Notes: generated by a model not told the origin, from the letters alone. A stretch of DNA of 64,000 nt from Nitrospirota bacterium (GCA_023382175.1 JAMCQB010000049.1:2888-66887), one strand, 5' to 3'; positions 696-25,466 are shown, counted from the first letter of the stretch. A program made the numbers and translations.

Positions 696-1615
696 AAATA
701 GGCGTAAAGATTGACGAAGTGAGGATTGATGGGGATCTGAAAAAACTGGCAAGTGATTTAACACACTATAAAAAAATCAACATAAATGCCACCGAGATAC
801 CTGTTCACGGCCTTGATGCCATTCAATACGGAAGGCTTGATAAAGGACAGGTAAAAAGGATAAAAGAGATTCTTAAAGACTTCGATTTTCAATATAGTGT
901 CCACTGCCCTAACCCGCTGAATCTGATGGATAGAGAAAATCCAGAACTCCACATCTCGGTTTTAAGGGCAACCCTTGAATTTGCATCGGAGATAGGTTCA
1001 AATATTATTGTCTATCATCCCGGAAGATATATTCCTGAAGAGGCATTTCCTGTCAATGGTAAGGTGAATATTTGCGATGATGAAAAAATAAGTCTTCTTG
1101 ATTTTGAAGCATCAGCAATTGAAAAGCTATCTACTGAATATCTTGACATCATTGTCTGCATGGAAAATGCAAGGCCATATCTCTTTCATTCGCCGTACTG
1201 CTATGCAGAACAGCCTGAGTTATTGAAAGAACAGGTATTGAAAATCAATAGAGGTAATGTGAAGATAAACCTCGATTTCGGCCATCTCTACATGGCGTCA
1301 AAGTTTTATAATTTTGACCATGTATCGGCAGTTAGTGAAATTAAAGATTTAATTGCCCATACCCACATCCATGACAACTTCGGCAATGCCGTTTATTACC
1401 ATGAAAAACAACAGACCCACCAGATACCCTTCGGCAAAGGCGACTCGCACATGCCTGTGGGATGGGGAGAGATACCCATAAAAGAATTACTCTCATCATT
1501 TGTTGCCTCTTACGAGGGGATGTTTATGATGGAGTTAAGAAGCAGGTATTTTGAGCATATCAGAGAGTCAAAAGAGAATCTTGAAGGACTCCTTTGGGGT
1601 TTAACCAAAACTTAA
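689..1615 (+). CDS. sugar phosphate isomerase/epimerase (xylose isomerase-like TIM barrel) family protein
   Basis: 308-aa ORF with metal-ligand-like spacing (HCP..., YHPG, MEN, DFGH, HIHDN) typical of AP-endonuclease-2/xylose-isomerase-like TIM barrels. It is translationally coupled to the upstream gene. Confidence 0.55.
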   Translation: MLKIGVKIDEVRIDGDLKKLASDLTHYKKININATEIPVHGLDAIQYGRLDKGQVKRIKEILKDFDFQYSVHCPNPLNLMDRENPELHISVLRATLEFASEIGSNIIVYHPGRYIPEEAFPVNGKVNICDDEKISLLDFEASAIEKLSTEYLDIIVCMENARPYLFHSPYCYAEQPELLKEQVLKINRGNVKINLDFGHLYMASKFYNFDHVSAVSEIKDLIAHTHIHDNFGNAVYYHEKQQTHQIPFGKGDSHMPVGWGEIPIKELLSSFVASYEGMFMMELRSRYFEHIRESKENLEGLLWGLTKT

Positions 1616-1654
1616 CCCTCCTTTAATAATCCTGTAACTAAAAAGACTTATCAT
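1610..1654 (+). promoter_or_regulatory. Pho-box-like promoter (three 7-bp boxes at 11-bp phase plus -10)
   Basis: ACTTAAC cctc CTTTAAT aatc CTGTAAC, then 10 bp, then TATCAT (1649-1654). The architecture matches the sites upstream of pstS, phoA and psiE in this window. Confidence 0.55.
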
Positions 1655-1695
1655 GTTAGCAACATGTCAGCAAATATGTTGGTAAATGGTTGGTA

Positions 1696-2385
1696 ATGCT
1701 ACTGTGTGACTTCCATATTCACACAAAATACTCTGACGGTTCCGTAGAGTTAAGAAGAACCATTGACCTCTTCGGACAGGCCGGCTTCGATGTAATCACC
1801 ATAACGGATCATGTGGTTAATGGGGATAGCTCCATCGGTAAAATTGCCCACAGATTCGGATTATCCGTGAAGGCTGATAACTTTGATGGATATATTTCCA
1901 ATATAAGACATGAGGCTCAAAGGGCATGGGATAAGTATGGAATGCTGGTAATTCCCGGAGTCGAAATAACCAAAAACTACGTCTCATCTGATAAATCTGC
2001 ACATATTCTTATCATTGACATAAAAGAATTCATCCCTGCCTGCTGGAGCTATGAAAAGATATTCCTTGAGGCAAAACAGCAGGATGCCCTGATAATAGCC
2101 TGTCATCCCCATCACATGTCCGACATGAGCAGAAGCACCTTGTATCTCTGGAATAACAGGGACAAGTACGCCAGGTACATCGACGCATGGGAAGTGGCGA
2201 ACAGGGATGATGTCTTTAACGTGATAAGCCTGAAGAAATATCCCTACATAGCAAACAGCGATTTTCACAGGACAAGACATCTTTACTCATGGAAAACCCT
2301 GCTGAACTGCGAAAAAAATACTGGATCGGTAAAACAATGTATAAGGCACAACAAAGGCGTCGCAATAACACTCTTTAGAAGTTAG
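1696..2385 (+). CDS. PHP-domain phosphoesterase
   Basis: The N-terminal CDFHIHTKYSDGS motif and later HPH and DFH histidine motifs are typical of the PHP family. ATG 1696 is preferred over TTG 1690. Confidence 0.7.
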   Translation: MLLCDFHIHTKYSDGSVELRRTIDLFGQAGFDVITITDHVVNGDSSIGKIAHRFGLSVKADNFDGYISNIRHEAQRAWDKYGMLVIPGVEITKNYVSSDKSAHILIIDIKEFIPACWSYEKIFLEAKQQDALIIACHPHHMSDMSRSTLYLWNNRDKYARYIDAWEVANRDDVFNVISLKKYPYIANSDFHRTRHLYSWKTLLNCEKNTGSVKQCIRHNKGVAITLFRS

Positions 2386-2395
2386 GAGGAAGGAA

Positions 2396-3610
2396 ATGGA
2401 AATATTCTGGATATTTACAGGCATAACAATTCTCGGACTTGTCGGATATGGACTTCAGATATTCGCGGTCCGTTCCTATATTTCTCATCCCTCCCTCAAC
2501 TCCGGGGAAGGGGATTCCCTTCCCCGATCTTTTCCGCCGATCTCTATCCTCAAACCTCTCAAAGGGCTTGATGACAATCTATTTGATAATCTTGAAAGCT
2601 TCTGCATGCTGGATTATCCTGAGTATGAAATTATATTCTCACTTCAGGATTTCAATGACCCTGCATATAAAGTAGCACGAAAAATCAAGGATAAATATCC
2701 CGATAGAGATATTGCTATCGTTGTCGAACATTGCGAGGACGGATTGAACCCAAAGGTGAACAACCTGATCCCTGCTTACAGAGTTGCCAAGCACCAGCAC
2801 ATACTCATCAGCGACAGCAATGTCATGGTCGATAAATATTACCTCAGGGAGATATCAATGCCTATGAATGAGCAAGGAGTCGGACTCGTGAGTAACCTCA
2901 TCAAGGGAGTGGGAGGAAGGTCCATCGGCTCCATACTTGAAAACCTCCACATGAACTCCTTTGTCATGGGAAGCGTCTGCTTCCTTGACAAATTCCTTAA
3001 AATGCCCTGCGTTATCGGGAAATCCATGCTGATGAAGAAGAGAGACATCGAAGCCATCGGCGGACTGAAGGCATACAAGGATGTGCTTGCCGAAGACTAT
3101 ATGATAGGCAAGATGATGCAAGAAAGCGGCAAAAAGGTGGTCCTGTCAAGTTATGTGATAAACAACGTGAACCATTATTGGGGTATCATAAAATTCATAA
3201 ACAGACACACCAGATGGGGAAAGCTCAGATGGAAAATCGGGGGTATAAAATATCTTTCTGAATTGATTGGGAACACCGTATTCATGTCTGTGCTTCCGAT
3301 AATGCTCTGGGAACCGTCAAAAATCACCGTCTCTTTTGCGCTGCTTGTCGCCCTGCTAAAAGCTTCCGGCGATTTTTATATCGGCAGACGCGCTGCTTCG
3401 GACCTGAATCCCTTTTTCTATTTTCTTTCGCCGCTAAAAGACATCGTCATAGGACTCATCTGGTTTGTCCCTCTTGTAAGCAACACCGTCTTGTGGAGAG
3501 GCCATCGCTTTATCATAGAGAAAGATTCAGTCTTATTCCCCTGTCCGGAAAACGGCTTCTGGTCATGGAGATACCGCATAGCGAATGCCATAAGAGAACA
3601 CCTTGCTTGA
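2396..3610 (+). CDS. membrane glycosyltransferase, ceramide glucosyltransferase-like (GT2/GT21)
   Basis: 404 aa with an N-terminal TM segment. ISILKPLKG, DSN and EDY (D/ED motifs) plus the RHTRWGKLRW (QxxRW-like) motif and C-terminal TM segments match this family. An RBS (GGAGGAAGG) lies upstream. Confidence 0.65.
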   Translation: MEIFWIFTGITILGLVGYGLQIFAVRSYISHPSLNSGEGDSLPRSFPPISILKPLKGLDDNLFDNLESFCMLDYPEYEIIFSLQDFNDPAYKVARKIKDKYPDRDIAIVVEHCEDGLNPKVNNLIPAYRVAKHQHILISDSNVMVDKYYLREISMPMNEQGVGLVSNLIKGVGGRSIGSILENLHMNSFVMGSVCFLDKFLKMPCVIGKSMLMKKRDIEAIGGLKAYKDVLAEDYMIGKMMQESGKKVVLSSYVINNVNHYWGIIKFINRHTRWGKLRWKIGGIKYLSELIGNTVFMSVLPIMLWEPSKITVSFALLVALLKASGDFYIGRRAASDLNPFFYFLSPLKDIVIGLIWFVPLVSNTVLWRGHRFIIEKDSVLFPCPENGFWSWRYRIANAIREHLA

Positions 3611-4001
3611 TGGTGCGCTGCATGAGTTTGCCCAGCGCGCCATAGGTGAAGGACCCTGGAGAACGGCGAACGAAACTCAAGTGGATATTACCGGACCGAA
3701 GGCCGGATACTGGAACGATACATGGGTAAAGAAGGGGCAAAGGCGTTTCTTGAATGTCACGGACAAAAAGTTTATCGGAACATGATGAGAGACATCGCAT
3801 AACTTAATGTTGCACCATTGCCATATAAAGAGGGGAAAGTAAGCGGATTGGCCAGCTCTCTTCCCTGCCCTGCCAACAAAAAGATTCTCGAGCTTCGATC
3901 TCTTTTCTTCTCAATATTCCTTTCCCTGGATTCAAGAACAATCGACAAATGCACGATATCGGCAGTTCGCTGTTTAATGACCATACAAAGGAGAGAAGCC
4001 C

Positions 4002-5285
4002 ATGAAGAAAGTCTTTGTCCTGGACACAAATGTATTGATCCATGACCCGGCGTCGATTTTCAAGTTCGAAAATAACGACATCGTAATACCGTTTACCGTC
4101 ATCGGGGAACTGGACAGGCACAAGAAAGGGCGCGGGGAAATTGCGGCTTCAGCGAGACAAGCCCTGAGGTCAATAGATGAACTGAGGGAAGCAGGCTCGC
4201 TTTCTTCGGGTATAAGAATGGCCACCGGTGGGATGATCTCGGTAAGTCTGCCTGCAACGAATTCATCAGGAAAGCTTCCGAGCAAAGGAGCAGAGGACAG
4301 TCAGATCATAAAGACTGCTCTCAGCATAGCAGCAAAGGAAGCCGAGGACCATAAAGGCAATTCTGTCCCTGTCGTTCTTGTCACGAAGGATACCGCGGTG
4401 AGAATAAAGGCGGAGTCGCTGGGCATCAGGGTTGAGGACTACATGAACGACAAGACTTCCCTCTTTCAGCAATATGGCAAGGTCCTTACCGATGGCGACA
4501 ACACTAACGGTATAGCGTCTCTCAGATATGTGAGCTCTGAAACGAACATCTACAAATTGGCAGGAACCGAAAGTGTAAGAGCTATAAAGAGATCGAGAGA
4601 AAGAATGGGTATCTCACCCAGGAATGTCGAACAGGAATGCGCTCTGGACGCCCTTTCAGATCCCGGAATCGAAATTGTTGCATTGACGGGCAACGCCGGG
4701 ACAGGCAAGACGCTCCTTGCGTTGGCAGCAGGTCTGCACCAAACTGCACAGGTCGTAAAGAAGACTTCACAGTATGAACAGGTGATCGTTTCGCGCCCGA
4801 TTGTGCCCATGGGCAACGACATAGGATATCTCCCCGGCAACATGGAGGAAAAGCTGACACCCTGGATGCAGCCGATTTTCGACAATCTGGAGGTCATCCT
4901 GAATACGCCCAAAGGAATCATGAAGGACAATACCAATGTCTCGAAGATGAAAAGCTATCAATACCTAATGGATGCCGGCCTGCTGCAGGTGGAGCCTCTC
5001 ACCTATATAAGGGGGAGGAGCCTTCCAAAGCGGTACTTTGTCATTGATGAGGCACAGAACCTGAGGCCCCTTGATATAAAAACCATTGTAACAAGGTGCG
5101 GAGAGGGAACGAAAATTGTTTTTACCGGCGATCTTGATCAGATTGACACACCGTATCTGGATAAAATGAGCAATGGCCTTGCATACTTGATAAGCCGGTT
5201 CATCAATGAAGAGAATTTCTGTTTTCTCAATCTCAGGAAAAGCGTGAGGTCACGGTTGGCAGAACAGGGAGCCAGATTATTATAG
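4002..5285 (+). CDS. phoH: PhoH-like ATPase with N-terminal PIN domain (PhoH2/YlaK type)
   Basis: N-terminal VLDTNVLIHD PIN motif and Walker A GNAGTGKT. VIDEAQN and FTGDLDQID motifs are typical of PhoH. Confidence 0.85.
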   Translation: MKKVFVLDTNVLIHDPASIFKFENNDIVIPFTVIGELDRHKKGRGEIAASARQALRSIDELREAGSLSSGIRMATGGMISVSLPATNSSGKLPSKGAEDSQIIKTALSIAAKEAEDHKGNSVPVVLVTKDTAVRIKAESLGIRVEDYMNDKTSLFQQYGKVLTDGDNTNGIASLRYVSSETNIYKLAGTESVRAIKRSRERMGISPRNVEQECALDALSDPGIEIVALTGNAGTGKTLLALAAGLHQTAQVVKKTSQYEQVIVSRPIVPMGNDIGYLPGNMEEKLTPWMQPIFDNLEVILNTPKGIMKDNTNVSKMKSYQYLMDAGLLQVEPLTYIRGRSLPKRYFVIDEAQNLRPLDIKTIVTRCGEGTKIVFTGDLDQIDTPYLDKMSNGLAYLISRFINEENFCFLNLRKSVRSRLAEQGARLL

Positions 5286-5509
5286 AAGCACTTGAATAGA
5301 GAATTGAGAAGTCCTTCCTTTCTCCGGGCACGCTGACCTAGAGGCTCCCTGGCGTACTTTGGCTTCTTCAATAATACCTGTGGCAGAACGGTCTTTATAT
5401 TCATTAAAGAACTAGAGACTACTGGACGGTGATAATCTACTGAATAAGGAAGTTCACAGTATTACAGATGCACCGCATCGGCAGACGGGTCTATCATGTT
5501 TTAATGCAA

Positions 5510-5554
5510 AATTAACGTTTCTTTCATATCCTTGTAACAATTTAAAGATAAGAT
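5510..5554 (+). promoter_or_regulatory. Pho-box-like promoter
   Basis: AATTAAC gttt CTTTCAT atcc TTGTAAC, then 10 bp, then TAAGAT (5549-5554). It lies 50 bp upstream of the ferredoxin/AOR operon. Confidence 0.5.
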
Positions 5555-5604: not shown

Positions 5605-6357
5605 ATGAACTGCAAGAAGGAAGAACATTGTGAAGAAATTACTGAAAATAATGAAGAAGGCAGCAAAAGAGTTGCCCTGATGTCATCACGGCGAGAGTTT
5701 CTCAGGAACACATCTATAGGTGCTTTTATTTTGGCCTCCGGACTTGTGCCAGTGGAAGAAGCTGCCGCTGGCAAAAAAAGTGCTGATGTTCCCAAGGCAA
5801 TGAAATTCCTTGTCTTTGATCCAGCCCTCTGTACCGGGTGCGGAACCTGCCAAATGGCCTGTTCAACCCTGTGGAACAATGGTAAAGCCAGTCCGGCCCT
5901 ATCAAGGGTTACCGTATCGAGGAACCCATTCGGCACCTCGGATAACAATTATTCACCCAATCCCTGCCTTCAATGTGTAGACGCCCCATGTCTTAAGGCA
6001 TGCCCCCTTGGTGCAATAAAGGTAGAGAAAAAATCAGGAGCCAATGCAAGGGTCATTGATGAAAAGCTCTGCAAGGGAGTAAGGAAATGTATTGAAGCAT
6101 GTCCTTACGAAGAAAAGCGCATTACGTACGATGCAGAGAGGAATAAGGCATTGAAGTGTCACTTATGCAATGGAGACCCCCAGTGTGTGAAGTGGTGTCC
6201 CAATGGCGCCTTGAGGTTTAGCGGCCCCCCTGATTTTTCTCCCGTGGTTGAATACCTGCCTCAAGTGACTAAAAAACCGATGGTGGATAAAAGCTTTATG
6301 ATCGTCCTTGAAGAAGAGCGGAAAAAAGAACTGGGTTATCCAAGGGAGGAGAAATAA
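5605..6357 (+). CDS. Tat-signal 4Fe-4S polyferredoxin-like subunit
   Basis: Twin-arginine motif SRREFLRNTSIGAFILASG and multiple CxxCxxCxxxCP-type clusters. A strong RBS (AGGAGGA) precedes ATG 5605. Confidence 0.75.
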   Translation: MNCKKEEHCEEITENNEEGSKRVALMSSRREFLRNTSIGAFILASGLVPVEEAAAGKKSADVPKAMKFLVFDPALCTGCGTCQMACSTLWNNGKASPALSRVTVSRNPFGTSDNNYSPNPCLQCVDAPCLKACPLGAIKVEKKSGANARVIDEKLCKGVRKCIEACPYEEKRITYDAERNKALKCHLCNGDPQCVKWCPNGALRFSGPPDFSPVVEYLPQVTKKPMVDKSFMIVLEEERKKELGYPREEK

Positions 6358-6358
6358 C

Positions 6359-8347: not shown

Positions 8348-8350
8348 AGG

Positions 8351-8722: not shown

Positions 8723-8807
8723 AAACTATGACTGTCGAGAAAACCGTCCTTACTCCGCACCTTGGCTCTGCGCACTGTGCTGCGGTTTTCTCTTTAGCTA
8801 AAGAATA

Positions 8808-9404: not shown

Positions 9405-9563
9405 TCAGTGAACTGTTTCCGCTATGCGCCTTTCCTGCAGGCCGTGCCGAGCTGATATGATATGTTCAGCTTCAAGCCAATTGTCGAGATCACGACCCTC
9501 AACTCTGCCATTGTTTTCATAGATTTCGTATGCCAGTCTTTCTACTTCATCGTGCAGATTCAT
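9405..9563 (-). CDS. small DUF2934-like protein (52 aa, below the ORF-track cutoff)
   Basis: Hand translation gives MNLHDEVERLAYEIYENNGRVEGRDLDNWLEAEHIISARHGLQERRIAETVH. The A.EIYE..GR..GRDL.DWL.AE pattern resembles DUF2934. A GGAGGTGAGAA RBS precedes it. Confidence 0.5.
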   Translation of the reverse strand: MNLHDEVERLAYEIYENNGRVEGRDLDNWLEAEHIISARHGLQERRIAETVH

Positions 9564-9690
9564 TTTCTCACCTCCTTTCCCTAAGGAATATTTACCTTAA
9601 TCATACACCGATATGATTACATCATTATTAAACTTCAATGAAACTTCCCGGTCTCTGATGTCAGTGAGGCTGTCGGAATTCTTAATCGAA

Positions 9691-9735
9691 ATTTCACAAC
9701 TTTGTCATAACGGATTAACAATGGTTTGATATCTT
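9691..9735 (+). promoter_or_regulatory. Pho-box-like promoter of phoA
   Basis: ATTTCAC aact TTGTCAT aacg GATTAAC, then 10 bp, then TATCTT (9730-9735). It is followed by a leader of about 165 nt before phoA. Confidence 0.6.
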
Positions 9736-9908: not shown

Positions 9909-11090
9909 ATGAAAAAAAGTATTTGGCAGGCGATGAGCAGCATAGCTATTTCATTAATAATATCACTTGTATCTGTGTCCCCCTCCTTTTCTGGAGAACG
10001 GTTGCTCGATAACCATAAGGAAGTCAAGAATATCATCTTCATGGTTCCTGACGGTATGGGCTTGGCCGATGTAACAGCGGCCCGCATCTATAAGAACGGT
10101 ATCGACGGCGCTCCTCTCTACTTCGAGACCCTGGAAGAGATCGGATACCAGAGAACATATTCAGCCGACAACACGATTACCGATTCAGCGGCTGCGGGCT
10201 CGGCTTGGGCTTGCGGAGAGAAGTTCGACAATGGTGAAATCTGCTACCACAGCGACGGGCGCCCTTACAACCCCAGCATTCTCGAATTGGCGAAGAGTCG
10301 AGGCAGGTCAACAGGGCTTGTGGCTACTTCCACAATCACACACGCCACTCCTGCGGTCTTTGGCGCCCATGTGAAGTCTCGTGGCTGCGAAAACGAAATA
10401 GCCTGTCAGTATATTGAGATGACAAGACCTGATGTGGTGCTCGGTGGCGGCGTATCAAAGTTCAATTCCACAAAACCAGACAAATGCGGCACCGCCGGCG
10501 ACTTCATCTCGGAAGCTTTGAATGAAGGGTATAAAGTTGTGTACACGAAAGAGGAAATGGAAAGCGCAGTATCGAGCGACACAACAAAACTCCTCGGACT
10601 TTTCAATAGCGGCGGCATGACCCCGGAATATCTCAGAACTCCCGGCCTTACTGAACCGAGACTGCCGGAGATGGCAAAAGCCGCTCTTAACATCCTCGAA
10701 AGAAATAAGCAAGGTTTCTTTGTAATGATCGAAGGTTCGCAGATTGACTGGGGCAATCACGCCAATAATCTGCAGTATCAAATCGGGGAAACCCTTGCCT
10801 TTGACGAGGCTGTGAAGGTCGTTCTCGATTGGATTAACGCAAGGCAGGAGAGGAAAGAGCACACTCTTCTCATTGTTGTCCCGGATCATGAAACCGGCGG
10901 CTTTGCCATCAACGGAAATGAAGACGTTCCTGCATTGGGACAATTTGTGCCGGGCTGGACCACAAGTGGTCATACAGGCACAGATACTGTCATATGGAGC
11001 CAGGGACCCGGCAGTCATACACTGGGCAGAGCCCTTGATAATACTAACCTTTATTGGATAATGAGGGAATCTTTAAAGGACAAAGAATAG
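9909..11090 (+). CDS. phoA: alkaline phosphatase (PhoA family), secreted
   Basis: Signal peptide, an active-site region DSAAAG(S/T) (here TDSAAAGSAWA), and DWGNHAN and DHETGG motifs. Confidence 0.85.
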   Translation: MKKSIWQAMSSIAISLIISLVSVSPSFSGERLLDNHKEVKNIIFMVPDGMGLADVTAARIYKNGIDGAPLYFETLEEIGYQRTYSADNTITDSAAAGSAWACGEKFDNGEICYHSDGRPYNPSILELAKSRGRSTGLVATSTITHATPAVFGAHVKSRGCENEIACQYIEMTRPDVVLGGGVSKFNSTKPDKCGTAGDFISEALNEGYKVVYTKEEMESAVSSDTTKLLGLFNSGGMTPEYLRTPGLTEPRLPEMAKAALNILERNKQGFFVMIEGSQIDWGNHANNLQYQIGETLAFDEAVKVVLDWINARQERKEHTLLIVVPDHETGGFAINGNEDVPALGQFVPGWTTSGHTGTDTVIWSQGPGSHTLGRALDNTNLYWIMRESLKDKE

Positions 11091-11199: not shown

Positions 11200-11244
11200 A
11201 CTTAACCCCTTATTCATCATGCTGTAATATCGCCGGAGTAAACT
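11200..11244 (+). promoter_or_regulatory. Pho-box-like promoter
   Basis: ACTTAAC ccct TATTCAT catg CTGTAAT, then 10 bp, then TAAACT (11239-11244). Confidence 0.5.
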
Positions 11245-12586: not shown

Positions 12587-12632
12587 ATTTAACCCACCTT
12601 TCATAACCCTGTAACATCTATCAATCTATAAT
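12587..12632 (+). promoter_or_regulatory. Pho-box-like promoter of psiE-like gene
   Basis: ATTTAAC ccac CTTTCAT aacc CTGTAAC, then 11 bp, then TATAAT (12627-12632). The ATG lies only 5 nt after the -10. Confidence 0.6.
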
Positions 12633-12637
12633 CACAA

Positions 12638-13078
12638 ATGCGCTTATTCAAGAAAGTCATAGATATAATCGTCAAGCTGATGATTCCCCTTGTAATCCTC
12701 GCTCTGATGATAGGGATTGCAAGGATATTCCTTGATTTGAGAGAGGTTTTCAAGAGTTCGACCATAGCCGGCGGTTTTGACATCATGGTGACGAATATCC
12801 TGTCGATGTTCGTCATCATAGAACTTCTTAAAGGGATCATAGAATATTTTGAGATACACAGGGTGAAGATTACCTTTATTACGGATGCAACATTGGTTTT
12901 TCTTCTCAGGGAAGTCATGATCGGCATATATCAACATAAAATGGGCTGGACTGAAATAATTTCAATTGCAGCGCTGCTCATCGTCATCGGCGGTATAAGG
13001 ACCATGGCTATTGTCTATTCGCCGGACAAGAGCAAGGAGGTGGCTGTCCATGAGCAAGGAACTGATCGAGAGAATTGA
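12638..13078 (+). CDS. psiE: phosphate-starvation-inducible PsiE-like membrane protein
   Basis: 146 aa with four TM segments. The central FVIIELLKGIIEYF...ATLVFLLREVMI pattern is similar to PsiE. Confidence 0.6.
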   Translation: MRLFKKVIDIIVKLMIPLVILALMIGIARIFLDLREVFKSSTIAGGFDIMVTNILSMFVIIELLKGIIEYFEIHRVKITFITDATLVFLLREVMIGIYQHKMGWTEIISIAALLIVIGGIRTMAIVYSPDKSKEVAVHEQGTDREN

Positions 13079-13230: not shown

Positions 13231-13275
13231 ACTTAACCTCTTTTTCATAACCATGTAACATCTTCTCCGTAGACT
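13231..13275 (+). promoter_or_regulatory. Pho-box-like promoter
   Basis: ACTTAAC ctct TTTTCAT aacc ATGTAAC, then 10 bp, then TAGACT (13270-13275). Confidence 0.5.
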
Positions 13276-15535: not shown

Positions 15536-15551
15536 CAATTCTGTTACAAAA

Positions 15552-15596
15552 AATTAACCTGGCTGTAATAATCCTGTAACAAAATAGTTGTATCCT
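15552..15596 (+). promoter_or_regulatory. Pho-box-like promoter
   Basis: AATTAAC ctgg CTGTAAT aatc CTGTAAC, then 10 bp, then TATCCT (15591-15596). The geometry and -10 hexamer are the same as at pstS. Confidence 0.6.
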
Positions 15597-17721: not shown

Positions 17722-17790
17722 CCGCCGATCTCCTTATACCAACAAAGTAATTGCATCGCAGCTCGCGTTCTTTACTATGATTGCTCATCA

Positions 17791-18054: not shown

Positions 18055-18115
18055 GGCAATTTCTTAAGAACGGTATTCATTAAGATCACGGTGACCAATT
18101 TCCATACTCGTGTCT

Positions 18116-19315
18116 TCAACCTTTCAACTCCCGTATTCTGTCTGTCAATTCCCAGGGCAGCCCTATATCCATTCTGCCCACATGTCCATATACTGCAAGC
18201 CTTCTGTAAAAACCGCCCTTAACAATGGAGGGCAGGTACCGCAGATTGAACTGTTTTATTATTCCCGCAAGTCGAAAGTCAAAATGCCTCTCAATGAGTT
18301 CTGCAATCTTCTCATCAGAGGTCTTCCCTGTGCCAAAGGTCTCTACCTGAACACTCACCGGCCTTGAAAGACCTATAGAATAGCTGAGATGTATCTCGCA
18401 TTCCTCTGCAAGCCCTGCTGCTACCACATTCTTTGCCGCATATCTGGCGGCATATGCGCCTATCCTGTCTATACGCATGGGGTCTTTTCCGCTCAGGGCA
18501 GAGCCGCTGTGCCGGGAATATTCTCCATAGGTGTCTATGGCATTCTTTCTCCCTGTTAAGCCTGAATGGACAGAAGGACCACCAACTATGAACGGCCCGT
18601 CGGGATTTATGAATATCCTCGTGTTTGTATCAGGTTTGATCTCCTCATCGGCGAATACAGGGTTTACAACAGCAGCCCTTATATCGTCATGCAGTTTCTT
18701 TAAATCAGGACCGCCTGATGCTAACGGTTTGTTCTGGCTCGCGATCACTGTAACACTGTGAATACTGTAAGGCCTGCCATCCCTGTATTCCACTCCTACC
18801 TGTGTTTTCCCGTCAGGTGCAAGATAGGGGAGTATCTTCTGGAGCCTGACAGAGGTCAGTTTTCTTGCAAGCCTGTGAGCGAGCCAGATGGGAAGGGGCA
18901 TAAAAGATGCGGTCTGGTTGCAGGCAAAGCCGAAGACAGTGACCTGATTCCTGACAGGGATATTATCCATCTCCTCCTCCGATAGCTCTCTCTCATCAAG
19001 GCAGCAATGCTCATCTGAAGGCAATTCCTTGAGGCTTGTTACAATGCTGCAGGTCTTGCCGTTAAAGGCATGCTGGTCATAGCCGATCTGGTTTATAACC
19101 TGTCTTGCTATATACGGGAAATCTACAATGGCATTGGATTCAAACCTTGCTGCTATAAAAACTATGGCTGTGGATACAGCACACTCAGCAATGACCCTTG
19201 AAAATGGGTCCTGCTGAAGGAAATGATCTACAAGGGCATCGCTTATCTGGTCACAGAGCTTGTCAGGGTGTCCTTCTGTTACAGATTCTGATATAAAAAT
19301 AAAGTCCTTTTTCAT
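18116..19315 (-). CDS. S-adenosylmethionine synthetase-like protein (divergent MetK paralog)
   Basis: The N-terminal SESVTEGHPDKLCDQISDA and GLTGRK..DTYG...SGKDP..DR.GAYAARY are clearly MetK-like. The GAGDQG signature region is replaced. Confidence 0.8.
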   Translation of the reverse strand: MKKDFIFISESVTEGHPDKLCDQISDALVDHFLQQDPFSRVIAECAVSTAIVFIAARFESNAIVDFPYIARQVINQIGYDQHAFNGKTCSIVTSLKELPSDEHCCLDERELSEEEMDNIPVRNQVTVFGFACNQTASFMPLPIWLAHRLARKLTSVRLQKILPYLAPDGKTQVGVEYRDGRPYSIHSVTVIASQNKPLASGGPDLKKLHDDIRAAVVNPVFADEEIKPDTNTRIFINPDGPFIVGGPSVHSGLTGRKNAIDTYGEYSRHSGSALSGKDPMRIDRIGAYAARYAAKNVVAAGLAEECEIHLSYSIGLSRPVSVQVETFGTGKTSDEKIAELIERHFDFRLAGIIKQFNLRYLPSIVKGGFYRRLAVYGHVGRMDIGLPWELTDRIRELKG

Positions 19316-19329
19316 TTAGCACCTCATTG

Positions 19330-19407
19330 CTTAAGGTTAAGGTTGAGGCTAAGGTTAAGAATTACAAATTTTTAATCTCTCTTAACCTAAACCTTAACCT
19401 CAACCTG
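19330..19407. repeat. hexamer-based palindrome (TTRAGG)n / (CCTYAA)n between the ATPase stop and the metK-like start
   Basis: ttaagg ttaagg ttgagg ctaagg ttaaga, then a loop, then tcttaacc taaacc ttaacc tcaacc. The right arm includes the ATPase stop codon. Confidence 0.6.
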
Positions 19408-22400
19408 TTCTTTTTGTGCCTTCATTCACTAACAATGGCATCACCGCACTGCCTCCAATCACAATACCATCGAGGATACCTATGGGAGCCAATCCCAAAA
19501 GATTTCGGAGCCCTGGTAGCGCCATGGCAAGAAGCTGTACGGCAAAGGAACCTCCGAGGGCGATATTGAGATATTTATTGGGCAGTAGTTTTTCCTTATC
19601 AAATATAGAATGCTTCTCGGAGCGGCAACTTATGGCGTGGAGAAGCTGACCTGCGGTAAGGCTCATAAAAGCCATGGCGCTTGCCTTCTGTCCCATACCG
19701 TATCTCATCACGCCATATCCATAGGCCCCCAGGGTCCCCGCGGAAATCACTGCGGATTCAAATGTGATTCTTTTGAAATCCGACGTCTTGACGATCAGTT
19801 CTTCAGGATCCCGTGGAGGCTGGCTCAGCACATCAGGTTCAGGGGGTTCGAGGGCAAGGGCAAGACCCGGCGCTATATCGGACATAAGGTTGATCCACAG
19901 CAGCTGTATCGCACTGAGAGGTTGACCGAGCCCCCCTGCAATAGCAGTGAACATAACCATGATCTCGCTCAGATTTGTCGACAGCAGGAAATGGACGGAT
20001 TTCCTGATGTTGTTATAGATGGTCCTTCCCTGGCTTATGGCGATGATCATCGTTGCGAGTTCATCGTCTTCGATGACAACGTCTGCGACTTCCCGGGCAA
20101 CATCGGTGCCCACATGTCCCATTGCGATGCCTATATCCGCTGCTTTGAGGGCAGGGCCGTCATTAATACCATCTCCCGTCATGGCCACAATCTTTCCCGC
20201 ACCCTGGAGCGCCTGAACTATCTGGAGCTTATGGGCAGGACTCACGCGCGAAAAAACATGCACCCTCTCGCAGAGCGCCTTCATCACTTCAGGGTCGATA
20301 CTGGCAAGGTGAGCGGAATCAAGGATCTCGAGTTGTTCGCCATTGCTGAGGTTCAATTCCTTTCCTATGGCATAGGCGGTCGGGCTCTGGTCGCCGGTTA
20401 TCATGACCGTCTCAATCCCTGCCCTGTGAAATTCCCCTATCAACCCCTTCACGCCTCCTCTGACCGGATCAGCCATTCCTACAAGACCCAGCCACACAAG
20501 ATTATCGCTGAAATCGACATCATTATTAAGAAACGCGCCCGGTTCACCATCACTGAGAGAGTACGCCACCCCAAGGACACGGAGAGCCTCCCCGGCCATA
20601 CGCTCATTTTCCGTCTCTATGGCGAGCCGGTCCTCATCGGTCAAGGGAATCTTCCTGCCATCCTTCATATGCCACCTGCACATCGACAGGACCTCGTTCG
20701 GGCTCCCCTTTACGGCAACAAGCGCGGAATGGTTGCCTGCGCGGTGAAGTGTATACATGTAGTTGCGGTTTTCAGAACGATGTTGAATGTTCACCAGGAG
20801 AAATTTTTCCCTGAGTCTTACCACATCGACCCCCGAACTCAATGCTATGTGGATCAGCGCATTCTCCGTAGGAGAACCGTTGACCGCATATTCACCATGC
20901 TGTCCGATCACTTCACTTTCATTGCAGAGAGCCGCTATGTGAATGAGTCTCAGGAGTTCATCGAAGAGATATACACTCGCCGGTTCACCGGACGCAAAAA
21001 ACTGCCCGTCGGATACAGTGAAGCGCCTCATCCCACTAAATGCCGTGACAACAGACATCCTGTTCAGGGTGATCGTTCCTGTTTTGTCGAGGCATATGGT
21101 GTGGATAGAGCCGAGGGTTTCGACCGCTTCGAGTCGCCGTATGAGGACGTTGTGCCTCCGCATATTTCTGATGCCCAGGGCTAAGGTTGTGGTCGCCACT
21201 GTCGGAAGTCCTTCGGGGACGGCGGCGATGGCAAGGGATATGGAGGTTTTGAGCATCTGTAAAAAACCGTATCCACGAAGAAGTCCCGTAACAAAGACCA
21301 GGCCGCAGACAGCGCCGCAGATCAATACCAGTTGGCTGCCCATCATGTCCAGTTGGCGCTCCATAGGGGTTTCAGGAGGTCTTGCTTCACCGACGAGGAT
21401 TTGTATCCTTCCGATCTCGGTAAACCTCCCTGTCGCAACGGCAACAGCAATCCCCTGTCCTCCGACAACAAGTGTCCCCATGTATACCATGTTCGTCCTG
21501 TCAGCGAGGGGGATGTTGTCCCTCTCACCCTCTCCCGCCAGGGGAGAGGGTTTATAAATTTGTTTCCCTCCCCCTTGATGGGGGAGGGTGAGGGAGGGGG
21601 TGGCTGTTGTTTTAACCACAGGCATACTCTCGCCGGTGAGTGCTGACTCATCGATGCTCAGGTGATTGGCTTCAATGAGCCTTGCGTCTGCCGCAACATA
21701 GCTGCCGGGCCTGAGCAGAAGGAGGTCTCCGGGCACTACGTTTTCTGCGCCTATCTCTTTCAGACGACCATCCCGCAGCACTATAGCAGAGGGTCTCACA
21801 AGATTCTTCAGCGAATGGATCGTTTTTTCGGTCTGGCTCTCGGTTGTGTAACCGATGGCGGCATTGATGAGGACTACGCCCATGATCACCACCGCATCTG
21901 CAAGACCGCCGGTGAGGAGCGAAATGCCCGCAGCAGCTCCCAGGAGGGCGACAGGAAGGGATTTGAACTGGTTGATGAACATACTCAGCCCTGAACGCGG
22001 AACAGATTCAGGAAGGACATTCGGACCGTATTTTTTGAGATGTGCCCCGGCGAGGTCGCCGGATAAGCCCGAATCTTTCGACGTGCCGAGAGATTGGAGA
22101 ACCTCGGTCGCCTCAGCAAGATGCCACGGCTCGACTCTCTGGTCCTCGGACCGGATAATGCTTTTCCTTAATTTTCTCCTGCTTCTGAGCTCTCCGCGTT
22201 CCGGGGTCAGGACTTCGCCTGGCCTTGCTTTTTCCGGAAGCGGGTTGTGGACCTTTGCATGTCGAACTTCTTTCCCGGAGCCTGCTGCCACCCCTGGAAC
22301 GGGTAATGAAAAACAAGATGACTGCCTTCCGGCATTTTTTTTGTGAGCTTCGACAACGTCCGCAATGAGCAGGGCTATTGAATGGTGGGGGTTGTCTGAA

Positions 22401-22570
22401 TTAAAGAAAACAAGCACACTCCCGGTCAAAGAGTTTACCGAGAATTTCAGTATCTCTTTATGAGACGACAGACCCCCCTCTATCTCTCTCTTGAGCCTCT
22501 CAGAGCGGTATAGCCCATCTACCTTAAATCGCGCCCTGCCTTTTACAGCAGCATGTATGGGCCGAACCAC
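19400..22570 (-). CDS. P2-type cation-translocating P-type ATPase with N-terminal HMA2-type domain
   Basis: TGES, PEGLP, DKTGTIT, MITGDQ and GDGINDGPALK motifs. The TM5/TM6 motifs STNLSEI and INLMSD resemble SERCA-like Ca-site residues. The N-terminal KGRARFKV...N.LTGSVLVFF is an HMA2-type domain. Confidence 0.9.
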   Translation of the reverse strand: MVRPIHAAVKGRARFKVDGLYRSERLKREIEGGLSSHKEILKFSVNSLTGSVLVFFNSDNPHHSIALLIADVVEAHKKNAGRQSSCFSLPVPGVAAGSGKEVRHAKVHNPLPEKARPGEVLTPERGELRSRRKLRKSIIRSEDQRVEPWHLAEATEVLQSLGTSKDSGLSGDLAGAHLKKYGPNVLPESVPRSGLSMFINQFKSLPVALLGAAAGISLLTGGLADAVVIMGVVLINAAIGYTTESQTEKTIHSLKNLVRPSAIVLRDGRLKEIGAENVVPGDLLLLRPGSYVAADARLIEANHLSIDESALTGESMPVVKTTATPSLTLPHQGGGKQIYKPSPLAGEGERDNIPLADRTNMVYMGTLVVGGQGIAVAVATGRFTEIGRIQILVGEARPPETPMERQLDMMGSQLVLICGAVCGLVFVTGLLRGYGFLQMLKTSISLAIAAVPEGLPTVATTTLALGIRNMRRHNVLIRRLEAVETLGSIHTICLDKTGTITLNRMSVVTAFSGMRRFTVSDGQFFASGEPASVYLFDELLRLIHIAALCNESEVIGQHGEYAVNGSPTENALIHIALSSGVDVVRLREKFLLVNIQHRSENRNYMYTLHRAGNHSALVAVKGSPNEVLSMCRWHMKDGRKIPLTDEDRLAIETENERMAGEALRVLGVAYSLSDGEPGAFLNNDVDFSDNLVWLGLVGMADPVRGGVKGLIGEFHRAGIETVMITGDQSPTAYAIGKELNLSNGEQLEILDSAHLASIDPEVMKALCERVHVFSRVSPAHKLQIVQALQGAGKIVAMTGDGINDGPALKAADIGIAMGHVGTDVAREVADVVIEDDELATMIIAISQGRTIYNNIRKSVHFLLSTNLSEIMVMFTAIAGGLGQPLSAIQLLWINLMSDIAPGLALALEPPEPDVLSQPPRDPEELIVKTSDFKRITFESAVISAGTLGAYGYGVMRYGMGQKASAMAFMSLTAGQLLHAISCRSEKHSIFDKEKLLPNKYLNIALGGSFAVQLLAMALPGLRNLLGLAPIGILDGIVIGGSAVMPLLVNEGTKRTG
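21519..21600. repeat. double-hairpin GC-rich palindromic element inserted in frame in the ATPase gene
   Basis: CCCTCTCCC-gccag-GGGAGAGGG (21528-21550) and CCCTCCCCC-ttgat-GGGGGAGGG (21566-21588). It is translated as ...LTLPHQGGGKQIYKPSPLAGEGERD... Confidence 0.65.
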
Positions 22571-22585
22571 ACCTTTTATCCCTTT

Positions 22586-23266
22586 TTACCCTTCGTTCTC
22601 GGGGTTTTTTTCTGATACGCCTGCTTTCGGAGCCGTTGCTTCTTTTCGAGCGCCTGTAACGGCTGGTCTCGGTTTCGGCAGGGCGGCGCCTGCAACCTCC
22701 TTCACTCCTTCAACAACCCCAACAAGCATATCCTTGACAGCCTTTACCGCGGTATTCCCTATAGTTCCGGCAGCCTCGATCGCCCCTCCCACAGCCACCT
22801 TTGCCACATCTTCCACATTCCCGCCGACTTCCTTGGTTGCTTCGATGACCCCGTCAACCGCCCTCCGCGCAACCATGGCAACATCAGCGCCTACCTCAGC
22901 AGCACCTTTGACTGCGCCCTTTACCGTCTGGCTGGCAACGGTCACGACATCTCCGCCGACATCGCTCACTCCCATGACGACACCCTTCGCAACGCTCTTT
23001 GTGCTTAAAATGAGGCCTGTGCCGACCTCTTCCGTCGCCTGAATCGCACCCTTTACCACGTCTCTTGTAATGGTAACTGCTTCATTGGCCACTGAACCAG
23101 TGGCTCTCAGAGTGTTGGAAACGGTATTCCTCACCAGGCTGACGATTTCAGCCTCGATCTCGTTGATGCCCTTGAGGCTGCTCACGACACCTTCTTTTAC
23201 TGCTGTTCCTGCCTTGCCGATTCCTTCGCCCATCGGGCTTTCCTCTATGACATGCTCATTAGACAT
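22586..23266 (-). CDS. tandem 22-residue repeat protein (about 7-8 repeats), unknown function
   Basis: The start is set at ATG 23266, behind GAGGAGG. The repeats are TRDVVKGAIQATEEVGTGLILS / TKSVAKGVVMGVSDVGGDVVTV / ASQTVKGAVKGAAEVGADVAMV / ARRAVDGVIEATKEVGGNVEDV / AKVAVGGAIEAAGTIGNTAVKA, and so on. Confidence 0.6.
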   Translation of the reverse strand: MSNEHVIEESPMGEGIGKAGTAVKEGVVSSLKGINEIEAEIVSLVRNTVSNTLRATGSVANEAVTITRDVVKGAIQATEEVGTGLILSTKSVAKGVVMGVSDVGGDVVTVASQTVKGAVKGAAEVGADVAMVARRAVDGVIEATKEVGGNVEDVAKVAVGGAIEAAGTIGNTAVKAVKDMLVGVVEGVKEVAGAALPKPRPAVTGARKEATAPKAGVSEKNPENEG

Positions 23267-23310
23267 GGGTAACCTCCTCTTTTTCACAAACGTGGGTAGC
23301 TGTTTATCAT

Positions 23311-23333
23311 AAAAACGGAAGGGAAATCCCTTC
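23311..23333 (-). terminator. possible weak terminator/attenuator between the HMA2-TM gene and the repeat-protein gene
   Basis: On the minus strand, GAAGGG-atTT-CCCTTC followed by CGTTTTTAT. Confidence 0.35.
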
Positions 23334-23346
23334 TTCCTCCAGACCG

Positions 23347-23829
23347 TTATGCTGCGACCCCGGCGCCTTGCCCTGACTTGAGGAATATGTTAAATGCGTA
23401 CCAGAAGGCGGCATACCATGGGAGCGCAGTAAGATTTCCTACGCTCATTTGGTATATTCCGGCGCCGAGGAGCAGGAGAAAAGCCAGCCCTCCGATGTCT
23501 ATCTCGCCCCCGGTAAGCGCCACAAGCTGAGTATTCATCCCTTTAAAGGTTTCCGATACCCGCTGCTGCAACCTTCTCGGAGAGGCGTTCAGTCCTTGAA
23601 GGCTGAAAAGATTACCGGCCATGGCGTATCCCGCAATTCTTTCACTATCCAGATCGTGCATCACGAGCAAACTGCCGGTTAAGGCATTGACTTCAACGGT
23701 CTTGATGCCTTCAAAACCGGAAAATCGTTCCTTCAAGCCTCCAAAAAATGCACGATCACCCTTTTTTGAAGGTATCCTGATCCTCAACCTTCCTCTGGTC
23801 CGATGGCTTATATAAGCGCGCGGGAGCAT
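23347..23829 (-). CDS. HMA2-type domain protein with C-terminal transmembrane segments
   Basis: The N-terminal H.TRGRLRIRIP...N.LTGSLLVMH motif and the C-terminal GGLAFLLLLGAGIY...ALPWYAAFWYAFNIFL. Its start overlaps the upstream stop (TAATG). Confidence 0.6.
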   Translation of the reverse strand: MLPRAYISHRTRGRLRIRIPSKKGDRAFFGGLKERFSGFEGIKTVEVNALTGSLLVMHDLDSERIAGYAMAGNLFSLQGLNASPRRLQQRVSETFKGMNTQLVALTGGEIDIGGLAFLLLLGAGIYQMSVGNLTALPWYAAFWYAFNIFLKSGQGAGVAA

Positions 23830-24119
23830 TAAGCGTTTGGTTCGCCTTCCGGCGCAACCGGGGCAGATGCGGCTTTTTCCGCCTCCGAGATCTCAGCTTT
23901 TACCTCGGCTACCAGGTCCTCAACCACCTCACCTACTTCAGCAAAAGTCTCCTTGCCTTTTTCAAAGAGGATAAGTCCTCCCTTTATCGCTGCCTTTGCC
24001 ACCGGTTTTGCCACACCTGCAATAACGGGGAGCACGGCAGGAGCAAGGACAGCCGCCCCTATGCCAATAGCAAGCCCTGTCACAACATTTCCCTTCAGGA
24101 CATCATCAAAAAGTCCCAT
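23829..24119 (-). CDS. DUF5132-like small membrane protein
   Basis: MGLFDDVLKGNVVTGLAIGIGAAVLAPAVLPVIAGVAKPVAKAAIKGGLILFEKG followed by an acidic tail. This matches my recollection of DUF5132 proteins, which are often adjacent to HMA2/P-type ATPase genes. Confidence 0.55.
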   Translation of the reverse strand: MGLFDDVLKGNVVTGLAIGIGAAVLAPAVLPVIAGVAKPVAKAAIKGGLILFEKGKETFAEVGEVVEDLVAEVKAEISEAEKAASAPVAPEGEPNA

Positions 24120-24211
24120 TCCGAGCCTCCTTTCTTTTGTATATCTTTACCATATCACTTTCATCATTTAGCGTCCATGAGTTCTTTCATTACTTGCCTA
24201 CAAGAAGACAA

Positions 24212-24267
24212 ATTTCATTGAAATTTAACGGTAGCTTCATAAGGACGTAACAGTACTGTGGTTTACT
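24212..24267 (+). promoter_or_regulatory. Pho-box-like promoter (four phased boxes)
   Basis: ATTTCAT tgaa ATTTAAC ggta GCTTCAT aagg ACGTAAC, then 10 bp, then TTTACT (24262-24267). Confidence 0.55.
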
Positions 24268-24300
24268 ATGCCCAGGATCAGACGAAAGAGGATGACTGCT

Positions 24301-24564
24301 ATGATGCAGTACAAGATTTTACATCATGTCCCAGGCCGTATCAGGATTGAGGTGCCCTCCATTAAGGGACGTTCCCTGAAGGCTCTAAAGCGATTATCAG
24401 ATATTCCCGTTCCGTGCGGTATAGAGGACATTCGCCCTAATCCCTTGACAGGAAGCCTCTTGATAAAGTATGACCCAGGCCGGATAAATATCGTTTCCTA
24501 TCTGAGGGACATGGCATCCAGGGACGTGATAAACAATGTACTCGACAAAGGAGGTTTGTTATGA
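24301..24564 (+). CDS. stand-alone HMA2-type domain protein
   Basis: HHVPGRIRIEVP...NPLTGSLLIKYDP. The start was moved to ATG 24301 because ATG 24268 abuts the predicted -10. The RBS is AAGAGGA. Confidence 0.6.
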   Translation: MMQYKILHHVPGRIRIEVPSIKGRSLKALKRLSDIPVPCGIEDIRPNPLTGSLLIKYDPGRINIVSYLRDMASRDVINNVLDKGGLL

Positions 24565-24770
24565 ACAGCACCCATAACATTGCATCTATGATACACCTCA
24601 CCAATGAATTGGAATTGCAGTGCCCCTACTTTGATGCATCCGACGTCTGCAATGCCTCGCTCTCCTCATTATTGCCATCGCCGACTATGAGGGTGAATTT
24701 CTGTAACAGCGAAGACTATGACAATTGCCCCATATTCCTGGCTAAGGTCTTAAGAAGGAGGCGGAAATGA
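24561..24770 (+). CDS. small four-cysteine protein, paralog E
   Basis: ATGA start/stop overlap with the upstream gene and an AAGGAGG RBS. The Cys pattern is C-x8-C-x17-C-x7-CPIF. Confidence 0.55.
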   Translation: MNSTHNIASMIHLTNELELQCPYFDASDVCNASLSSLLPSPTMRVNFCNSEDYDNCPIFLAKVLRRRRK

Positions 24771-24958
24771 CATGTCTCGACTATGTGTCCGAAGATTTGA
24801 GATGTCTCAGGGGTATCCCCGTTACTCCAAGGTTCAGCAGCTTCTTCTGTAAAGGAAAACATGAGAAATGTCCTTTGATCATATGGGAGAAATCTCAGAC
24901 AAAGAACCCGGAGATGTTACGGCCGAAATCATTTATCAATATATGGAGGGAACCATGA
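24767..24958 (+). CDS. small four-cysteine protein, paralog F
   Basis: ATGA overlap and an AAGGAGG RBS. The Cys pattern is C-x9-C-x14-C-x6-CPLI. Confidence 0.5.
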   Translation: MTCLDYVSEDLRCLRGIPVTPRFSSFFCKGKHEKCPLIIWEKSQTKNPEMLRPKSFINIWREP

Positions 24959-25134
24959 AATGTCCGCATCTGGCAAAATGGGTCGTGTCTGTCTGTAAGG
25001 CTGTGAGTAATACTTATGTCCCCAGTAACTTTGAGCTTCAAGAGTACTGTAAGACAAAAAGCCATAAGAAATGCCCTTTCTTTTTAAAGAATACAGCCGT
25101 GAAAAGAGAAGCGGATGGCCTGATCTCAGCATAG
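24955..25134 (+). CDS. small four-cysteine protein, paralog G
   Basis: ATGA overlap with F and a GGAGGG RBS. MKCPHLAKWVVSVCKAV...YCKTKSHKKCPFFL gives the pattern C-x10-C-x17-C-x7-CPFF. Confidence 0.55.
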   Translation: MKCPHLAKWVVSVCKAVSNTYVPSNFELQEYCKTKSHKKCPFFLKNTAVKREADGLISA

Positions 25135-25168
25135 GATAAACCCATGCTCATGGGATGCAGTCTTTATA

Positions 25169-25213
25169 ATTTAACATCTCCTTAATATTGCTGTAACATT
25201 ACCCTGTTATTCT
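25169..25213 (+). promoter_or_regulatory. Pho-box-like promoter
   Basis: ATTTAAC atct CCTTAAT attg CTGTAAC, then 10 bp, then TATTCT (25208-25213). Confidence 0.5.
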
Positions 25214-25218
25214 ATTTC

Positions 25219-25353
25219 ATGGTAATTATCTTTTTGAGTCTCATCGTTTGCGTAGTCGCCGTGATTATTTTGTTTAAAGCAAGCCCGAATCTTTTTATAT
25301 TCCAGCTTATGGAAAGGGTTTTTGGAGAAATACATTTCAACAAAAGGAAGTAG
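25219..25353 (+). CDS. possible 44-aa single-TM peptide, candidate leaderless ORF
   Basis: The ATG lies 5 nt after the predicted -10. The product MVIIFLSLIVCVVAVIILFKASPNLFIFQLMERVFGEIHFNKRK has a hydrophobic N-terminus. No homology was recognised. Confidence 0.3.
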   Translation: MVIIFLSLIVCVVAVIILFKASPNLFIFQLMERVFGEIHFNKRK

Positions 25354-25410
25354 CGTAAGCATTTTTTTGGCGTGACGAACTAAGAACCGGAAAGGAGGTG
25401 AGATTTCGGG

Positions 25411-25466
25411 ATGTAACAGAAAATTAATCTTCTTGTAACATAATTGTAACAATCAAAATGTATCCT
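25411..25466 (+). promoter_or_regulatory. Pho-box promoter of pstS (four phased boxes)
   Basis: ATGTAAC agaa AATTAAT cttc TTGTAAC ataa TTGTAAC, then 10 bp, then TATCCT (25461-25466). Confidence 0.7.

Follow-up and report, generated by a model that had tools for sequence, protein, structure and literature searches.

Eleven promoters with phased 11-bp repeats, probably Pho boxes, in an uncultured Thermodesulfovibrionales bacterium

Eleven promoters that share one phased repeat lie within 25 kb of a 64,000-nucleotide stretch of a Nitrospirota bacterium (GCA_023382175.1, JAMCQB010000049.1:2888-66887; the whole stretch is called the window below). They precede, among other genes, those for high-affinity uptake of inorganic phosphate (Pi), pstSCAB-phoU, for the alkaline phosphatase PhoA and for PsiE. 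We propose that these arrays are PhoB-dependent (Pho-box) promoters, and put the probability of this reading at about 0.87. The term "regulon" is used here for a sequence-defined set of genes. The PstS protein of the window is 100% identical to that of a "Nitrospirae bacterium" metagenome-assembled genome (MAG) and has its closest relatives in the Thermodesulfovibrionales; by sequence, the window belongs to a MAG of this order (phylum Nitrospirota).

Architecture and statistics of the arrays

The 3' end of the last heptamer served as the anchor for aligning the sites, and a consensus for each unit was drawn from the 11 sites. Every site consists of three or four heptamer units in exact 11-bp phase (7 conserved plus 4 variable bp); the near-invariant columns of the alignment are those of the motif, and the 4-bp spacers vary from site to site. 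From distal to proximal, the units read A(T/C)TTAAC (unit 3), (C/T)TTT(C/A)AT (unit 2) and CTGTAAC (unit 1), and at six of ten sites (those ending at 1638, 5538, 9719, 15580, 24251 and 25450) an extra fourth unit, T(T/G)TAAC, is found in phase upstream. The array is followed by a -10 element of the type TAnnnT in 10 sites, the exception being TTTACT at 24262. The spacing is 10 bp in 10 of the 11 sites and 11 bp in that of psiE, and the letters T, A and T are found at +11, +12 and +16 in 9/10, 8/10 and 9/10 sites, respectively. A previous inspection of the DNA by itself (the sequence-only reading) had listed ten of these arrays, all on the plus strand. The alignment bore out their positions and phase, their -10 hexamers and the distance to them, and family searches (Pfam, NCBIfam) agreed with the gene labels it had given, pstS, phoA and psiE included. 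The list was incomplete, as it missed a site on the minus strand (9616-9646).

Scored with a 31-bp position weight matrix (PWM), the sites reach 29-42 bits (18.5-39 bits when left out one at a time; the minus-strand site is given in Table 1), while in first-order Markov shuffles of the window the best score averaged 12 bits and peaked at 21. Similarly, the pattern TTAAY-N7-TMAY-N6-GTAAY-N10-TNNNNT, with one mismatch allowed, has nine matches versus 0.00 expected from 100 dinucleotide-preserving shuffles. The other 38.5 kb of the window contains zero sites under the PWM; a match to GTAAC-N10-TAnnnT at 44417 is devoid of upstream repeats and was discarded as chance. A generic scan for sigma-70 -35/-10 pairs found no -35 element paired with the proposed -10 at any site, as expected for activator-dependent promoters, which lack a -35, and its two matches near sites (9693-9722 and 25171-25199) fall within the repeat arrays. 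The sequence-only reading had also raised the question of whether the motif is as frequent in non-promoter DNA. Considering all loci analyzed, 47 of 49 sites are outside long open reading frames (ORFs), even though ORFs cover 85% of the DNA.

Conservation in related genomes

To look at relatives, pstS loci were scanned, one genome per species (22 loci from Nitrospirota and 58 from other phyla, referred to by L numbers), using a PWM built solely from the sites of the window. Ahead of pstS, the array was present at a distance of 30-60 bp in most of L001-L014 and also in L026, with PstS proteins 69-96% identical to that of the window; in all, 15 related genomes carry it before pstS. Orthologous promoters at 69-78% PstS identity retain the motif, with the -10 at the same distance, amid surrounding sequence that has diverged. 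Of the 38 sites of relatives, 33 have TAnnnT at +10 or +11 (27 and 6 sites, respectively), and the fourth unit T(T/G)TAAC appears in phase despite being outside the PWM. The genes behind these sites are orthologs of those of the window, i.e., PstS, PHP, the HMA_2 protein and small proteins. PHP orthologs 75-80% identical have the motif upstream in five fetched genomes, and the loci listed with a motif upstream of a PHP ortholog are L011, L012, L017, L020, L026, L084 and L087. In two Thermodesulfovibrio genomes of 32-33% GC, the array also precedes a second PstS-like gene as well as the PHP operon; the Thermodesulfovibrio loci of this GC content have four to five PWM matches each. As a composition control, 56 of the 58 pstS loci from outside Nitrospirota had no match above 16 bits, including the AT-rich Thermodesulfobacteriota L021-L023. 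For the AOR-family oxidoreductase gene, the metagenome scan provided one close relative (L081, 94% identical), with a 21.6-bit site at the matching position, and the conservation of this box is that of a single locus.

The loci recovered with homologs of the small proteins share a whole island. Its order is a box, the gene of a mini-protein with four conserved cysteines (4-Cys), phoB, a GH1-like gene, a second box, PHP, GT21 and, further on, mgsA and two boxes followed by pstSCAB-phoU.

The regulator and the proposed mechanism

In eight relatives, a protein 42-47% identical to Escherichia coli PhoB is encoded near pst. Its recognition helix, RTVDVHIRRLR, is that of E. coli PhoB in seven of the eight orthologs and has two substitutions in the other. 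The unchanged helix would account for the likeness of the half-site T(G/T)T(A/C)A to the TGTCA of E. coli. The 4-Cys-phoB operons of L084, L085 and L087 each have a four-unit box of 23.6-28.6 bits directly before them, and L011 also has a box directly ahead of these two genes. Autoregulation of phoB through the same motif is a classic signature of the Pho box, and the phoB genes of these relatives appear to be autoregulated in this way. An ORF of the size of PhoR (577-580 aa) comes after phoB, next to pst, in L004, L010, L012 and L014. In L011 (4612-5904), L084 (6962-8236) and L087 (1978-3252), a protein of 424-430 aa with matches to glycoside hydrolase family 1 (GH1) is encoded at this place instead, followed by the PHP-GT21 operon, so that PhoR must be elsewhere in these genomes. 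We also considered the histidine kinase and response regulator of the window (13603-15178) as a possible PhoBR pair and rejected them, since the regulator is receiver-only and ca. 30% identical to PhoB receivers.

The mechanism that we infer is as follows. Under Pi limitation, dimers of phosphorylated PhoB, encoded outside the window, would bind the three or four 11-bp units head-to-tail, with T(G/T)T(A/C)A(C/T) as the half-site. The array, ending 10 bp upstream of the TAnnnT -10, would stand in for the -35, and the promoter-proximal PhoB would contact region 4 of sigma-70 and recruit RNA polymerase, by analogy with E. coli. Activation of the eleven promoters would turn on the high-affinity uptake of Pi (pstSCAB-phoU), its scavenging (phoA, uppP) and psiE, together with PHP and GT21 (probable lipid remodeling), the ferredoxin-AOR-HIT operon, an auxiliary histidine kinase/receiver pair and several CoBaHMA and unannotated 4-Cys mini-proteins. 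The sequences show how the arrays are built, that they are not random, which genes they precede and that the clade has conserved them, also before phoB; which protein binds them, where transcripts start, whether low Pi induces them and what the noncanonical members do is inferred.

Comparison with known Pho boxes

In E. coli, the Pho array replaces the -35 and ends ca. 10 bp before the -10, as known from the work of Makino and Wanner. The E. coli box, CTGTCATA(A/T)A(A/T)CTGTCA(C/T), found at the pstS, phoA, phoB and psiE promoters, has the geometry and placement of the arrays described here, and multiple boxes at pstS are also common to both. The sequence-only reading had pointed to this geometry, and the alignment agrees with it (units of 7 + 4 bp, an array abutting the -10 at 10 bp and no paired -35). 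Compared to the E. coli consensus CTGTCATAWAWCTGTCAY, the proximal 18-mers coincide at 10-14 of 18 positions, with a random mean of 5.2 and 12 or more coincidences in 0.085% of random 18-mers; the two are clearly related, but the consensus here is clade-specific. In contrast with TGTCA, the half-site is T(G/T)TAA(C) or TTT(C/A)AT, the preferred version differs from one to another of the three proximal units, three-unit arrays are common and the regulon has other members. The definition of the PHO box and the contact with sigma-70 come from E. coli (PMC4415409), where the direct-repeat units of 11 bp likewise have 7 conserved and 4 variable bp (PMC4415409, PMC2648988), and the Pho-box consensus is known to differ between species (PMC4415409).

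The cyanobacterial SphR box, made of PyTTAAPyPy(T/A) repeats with 3-nt spacers, is similar in its 11-bp period and its three or four tandem repeats, and its unit sequence CTTAACC/ATTTAAC is like unit 3 of the arrays described here (PMC4195498). However, the repeats of Synechocystis are located 61-182 nt upstream of the start sites (PMC4195498), whereas the arrays of the window abut the -10, their units 1 and 2 (CTGTAAC and CTTTCAT) are nearer to the E. coli type, and they do not qualify as SphR boxes. With the sites of PhoP of Bacillus subtilis they have in common the phased direct repeats and the type of -10; they differ from them in half-site and in regulator lineage, and no secondary sites inside genes were seen here. 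PhoP of B. subtilis binds four TT(A/T/C)ACA-like repeats in ca. 11-bp phase as two dimers, with a sigma-A-type -10, and has secondary sites inside genes. Full-text literature searches retrieved no description of a Pho box for Thermodesulfovibrio or Nitrospir*. The arrays are thus a regulatory element that is already known, in a form specific to this clade, and no new mechanism.

Weighing the alternatives

Some observations weigh against PhoB as the protein behind the arrays. The window contains no OmpR/PhoB-type regulator and no phoB/phoR (the sequence-only reading had already found no such pair), and the cognate regulator is deduced from relatives. Several sites have three units, an odd number that is hard to reconcile with dimers covering two units each, and the -10 at 24262 is weak. 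Three Nitrospirota pstS loci (L015, L016 and L018) have no match above 16 bits and no site upstream of pstS (L015 has a single minus-strand match of 15.6 bits, 5 kb downstream of pstS), and therefore the motif is not universal in the phylum. Finally, some sites precede paralogous 4-Cys genes, so that part of their similarity could come from joint duplication of promoter and gene.

The lack of PhoB in the window would also suit another regulator of the OmpR/PhoB family, responding, like PhoP/PhoQ, to a signal such as Mg2+/Ca2+ or metal stress, with pst, phoA and psiE merely co-regulated. Direct repeats in 11-bp phase are shared across the whole OmpR family, and the island has a Ca-type P-type ATPase, HMA-like CoBaHMA proteins, Cys-rich mini-proteins and a separate histidine kinase/receiver pair. 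Nevertheless, the local response regulator has no DNA-binding domain, and the operon with the Ca-type ATPase has no box in its own orientation. Moreover, pstS is the one gene that has the motif ahead of it in the majority of the Thermodesulfovibrionia loci fetched, and the motif precedes the gene of a regulator with the signature helix of PhoB, adjoining phoR and pst. We consider a regulator of this other kind unlikely.

It is much less probable still that GTAAC and the downstream hexamer are the -35 and -10 of an alternative sigma factor of the extracytoplasmic function (ECF) type. GTAAC is the best-conserved pentamer at the sites, and ECF -35 elements are often GGAAC or GAAAC, but the spacer between GTAAC and the hexamer is 10 bp rather than 16-18, the hexamer is of the sigma-70 type TAnnnT, and the two or three additional in-phase repeats conserved upstream have no part in sigma recognition. 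An equally slim chance is given to the recent duplication of a cassette of promoter plus small gene, without shared regulation. Motif positions are conserved between sites and spacer positions are not; the genes behind the boxes include unrelated ones (pstS, phoA, psiE, PHP and ferredoxin), and the orthologous pstS promoters mentioned above have preserved motif and -10 distance alone. What speaks for duplication is that at least seven paralogous 4-Cys genes are behind four of the boxes and that the strong Shine-Dalgarno sequence GGAGGTGA is repeated in the island. The boxes upstream of pstS, the PHP orthologs and phoB in relatives and the E. coli-type helix of PhoB strongly favor the Pho-box assignment already made in the sequence-only reading.

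Genes behind the boxes

The sites and their downstream genes are collected in Table 1.

Table 1. Predicted Pho-box sites of the window (numbered 1 to 10 along the plus strand; site 11 on the minus strand) and the genes that follow them
Feature	Coordinates	Strand	Details
Site 1: 4 units (GTTTAAC/ACTTAAC/CTTTAAT/CTGTAAC), -10 TATCAT (1649-1654)	1599..1654	+	41.7 bits; predicted promoter of PHP-GT21
PHP-domain phosphoesterase	1696-2385	+	Pfam PHP
GT21 glycosyltransferase	2396-3610	+	Pfam Glyco_transf_21
Site 2: 4 units, -10 TAAGAT	5499..5554	+	39.8 bits; predicted promoter of ferredoxin-AOR-HIT
Polyferredoxin	5605-6357	+	Pfam, NCBIfam
AOR-family oxidoreductase (YdhV-like)	6308-8347	+	Pfam, NCBIfam
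HIT protein	8351-8722	+	Pfam, NCBIfam
52-aa ORF	9405..9563	-	Strong Shine-Dalgarno GGAGGTGA; 17-bp-stem terminator downstream, 9329-9293
Site 11: Pho-box-like, 3 units, -10 TATGAT (9600-9605), 10-bp spacing	9616-9646	-	17.7 bits; also recovered by the degenerate pattern
Site 3: 4 units, -10 TATCTT	9680..9735	+	28.8 bits; predicted phoA promoter
Alkaline phosphatase PhoA	9909..11090	+	Pfam Alk_phosphatase 1.3e-81
Site 4: 3 units, -10 TAAACT	11200..11244	+	34.6 bits
4-Cys mini-protein A1	11266-11481	+	
C1, degenerate paralog	11411-11578	+	
UppP/BacA	11733-12518	+	
Site 5: 3 units, -10 TATAAT, 11-bp spacing	12587..12632	+	38.5 bits; predicted psiE promoter
PsiE family protein	12638..13078	+	Pfam PsiE 1.2e-8
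Site 6: 3 units, -10 TAGACT	13231..13275	+	42.0 bits
Small ORF B	from 13325	+	
Cytoplasmic histidine kinase	13603-14829	+	
Receiver-only response regulator	14789-15178	+	
4-Cys paralog C2	15297-15461	+	
Site 7: 4 units, -10 TATCCT	15541..15596	+	37.8 bits
4-Cys mini-protein D	15617-15832	+	
Zinc-ribbon protein	15871-16197	+	
CoBaHMA/HMA_2 protein	16178-16549	+	
Site 8: 4 units, weak -10 TTTACT	24212..24267	+	28.9 bits; counterpart site in L001, L089
CoBaHMA/HMA_2 protein	24268-24564	+	Probable start near 24301
4-Cys E	24561-24770	+	
4-Cys F	24767-24958	+	
4-Cys G	24955-25134	+	
Site 9: 3 units, -10 TATTCT	25169..25213	+	36.2 bits; precedes 44-aa transmembrane peptide
Site 10: 4 units (ATGTAAC/AATTAAT/TTGTAAC/TTGTAAC), -10 TATCCT	25411..25466	+	Predicted pstS promoter
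pstS-pstC-pstA-pstB-phoU	25488..29923	+	Pfam

Site 11 is predicted to drive the 52-aa ORF. No box was found upstream of the low-affinity Pit transporter gene (52843-53838), phoH2 (4002-5285), metK or uvrB. An ORF of 113 aa at 8719-9060 (+), antisense to mgsA and with no family match, is probably not a gene, and the ferredoxin-AOR-HIT operon would thus end at the HIT gene. Before the first Pho box, and ending at it, the window encodes (42-1615) an amidohydrolase and a xylose-isomerase-like TIM-barrel protein with weak similarity to the CbiR phosphodiesterase; the promoter of these genes is beyond the window.

The surroundings of pstS have features of their own. The 44-aa peptide with a single transmembrane segment (25219-25353) has its ATG 5 nt past the -10 of site 9, and for this reason its transcript is probably leaderless. 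L001 and L011 share the peptide (motif PNLFIFQL). It is missing from L007, L008 and L012, where the same promoter may simply serve pstS as a second one; in the window, too, site 9 may act as an extra upstream promoter of pstS. A perfect Shine-Dalgarno-like GGAGGTGA is located 10-25 nt upstream of the pstS box in the window (25394-25420) and in most relatives (L001, L005, L007, L008, L009, L011 and L012). It is followed by a start-stop or by a mini-ORF no longer than nine codons; in the window, L005, L008 and L011 this ends inside unit 4; in the window, the ATG-TAA is contained in the ATGTAAC of this unit. Within the window, GGAGGTGA is found almost exclusively inside the Pho island. The predicted 5' leader of phoA (9736-9908) is unusually long (ca. 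170 nt) and contains two GGGGGTGAT repeats, at 9762 and 9807. An Rfam search recovered only a tRNA, and hence no known leader or riboswitch in the phoA 5' region.

The 4-Cys family is represented by at least seven paralogs (A1, C1, C2, D, E, F and G), located behind sites 4, 6, 7 and 8 and all in Pho-box operons. The proteins of the window and their orthologs align with four invariant cysteines in the pattern C-x8-11-C-x14-17-C-x6-7-C. Pfam and NCBIfam gave no match for the small proteins of the window, and a profile search for the family recovered 211 homologs, all hypothetical and none with a Pfam domain. The organism names given for them are Nitrospirae or Thermodesulfovibrionales, except for one bin labeled Planctomycetota. 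Every fetched example has a box ahead, and the phoB operon of relatives begins with the gene of one subtype. An AlphaFold2 model from an alignment of 66 4-Cys sequences (predicted local distance difference test [pLDDT] of 54, predicted template modeling score [pTM] of 0.26) was too poor for use.

The other small family is HMA_2, which is the CoBaHMA domain. Two CoBaHMA genes are box-driven by our prediction (16178-16549 and 24268-24564), and orthologs of the CoBaHMA-E-F-G genes with boxes attached are present in L001, L005, L009, L011, L012 and L089. Divergent from site 8, a minus-strand operon (17005-24119) codes for DUF5132, CoBaHMA, an Ala/Val/Gly-rich repeat protein of 233 aa, a Ca-type P2A ATPase with an N-terminal CoBaHMA domain, MetK and a YfcE-type phosphodiesterase. 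This layout is kept in L001 and L089. The CTTTCAT copies at 24158 and 24184 were rejected as a box for this operon, being out of phase and in the wrong orientation. CoBaHMA and DUF5132 proteins flank the calcyanin gene in Microcystis strains forming intracellular carbonates (bioRxiv 10.1101/2024.07.07.602159), a neighborhood with the same families as the DUF5132/CoBaHMA/Ca-type ATPase cluster described here. We suggest, quite tentatively, that the Pho program of Thermodesulfovibrionia includes the clade-restricted 4-Cys family and the CoBaHMA proteins as a new module, possibly modulating PhoB signaling or managing the cations and mineral or polyphosphate stores released upon P exhaustion.

The PHP phosphoesterase and the GT21 glycosyltransferase are a probable lipid-remodeling pair, judging from analogy. 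In Thermodesulfovibrio, their operon extends to a metallophosphoesterase (L017 and L020) and, only in L020, to PhoA. The combination of PHP, GT21 and metallophosphoesterase is similar to the PlcP/glycosyltransferase pairs that remodel lipids in other bacteria. The methylglyoxal synthase gene mgsA (8808-9218, minus strand; NCBIfam 5.7e-65) is located beyond site 11, with the 52-aa ORF and the strong terminator in between; in L011, L084 and L087 it is directly upstream of pstS, within the Pho island. MgsA frees Pi from dihydroxyacetone phosphate and, as a speculation, the neighboring AOR could oxidize the aldehyde product.

Implications for Thermodesulfovibrionia

Although the mechanism itself is textbook knowledge, the arrays provide a usable Pho-box model for Thermodesulfovibrionia, a widespread group made up of anaerobic sulfate reducers and their relatives, most of them uncultured, and with it their regulons can be reconstructed from MAGs. 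Since the motif is kept in Thermodesulfovibrio, the predictions are open to testing in cultured strains. They would attach a condition, phosphate starvation, to families so far without a function, namely, the 4-Cys and CoBaHMA/HMA_2 proteins, PHP with GT21, and the YdhV-like AOR with its ferredoxin and HIT partners.

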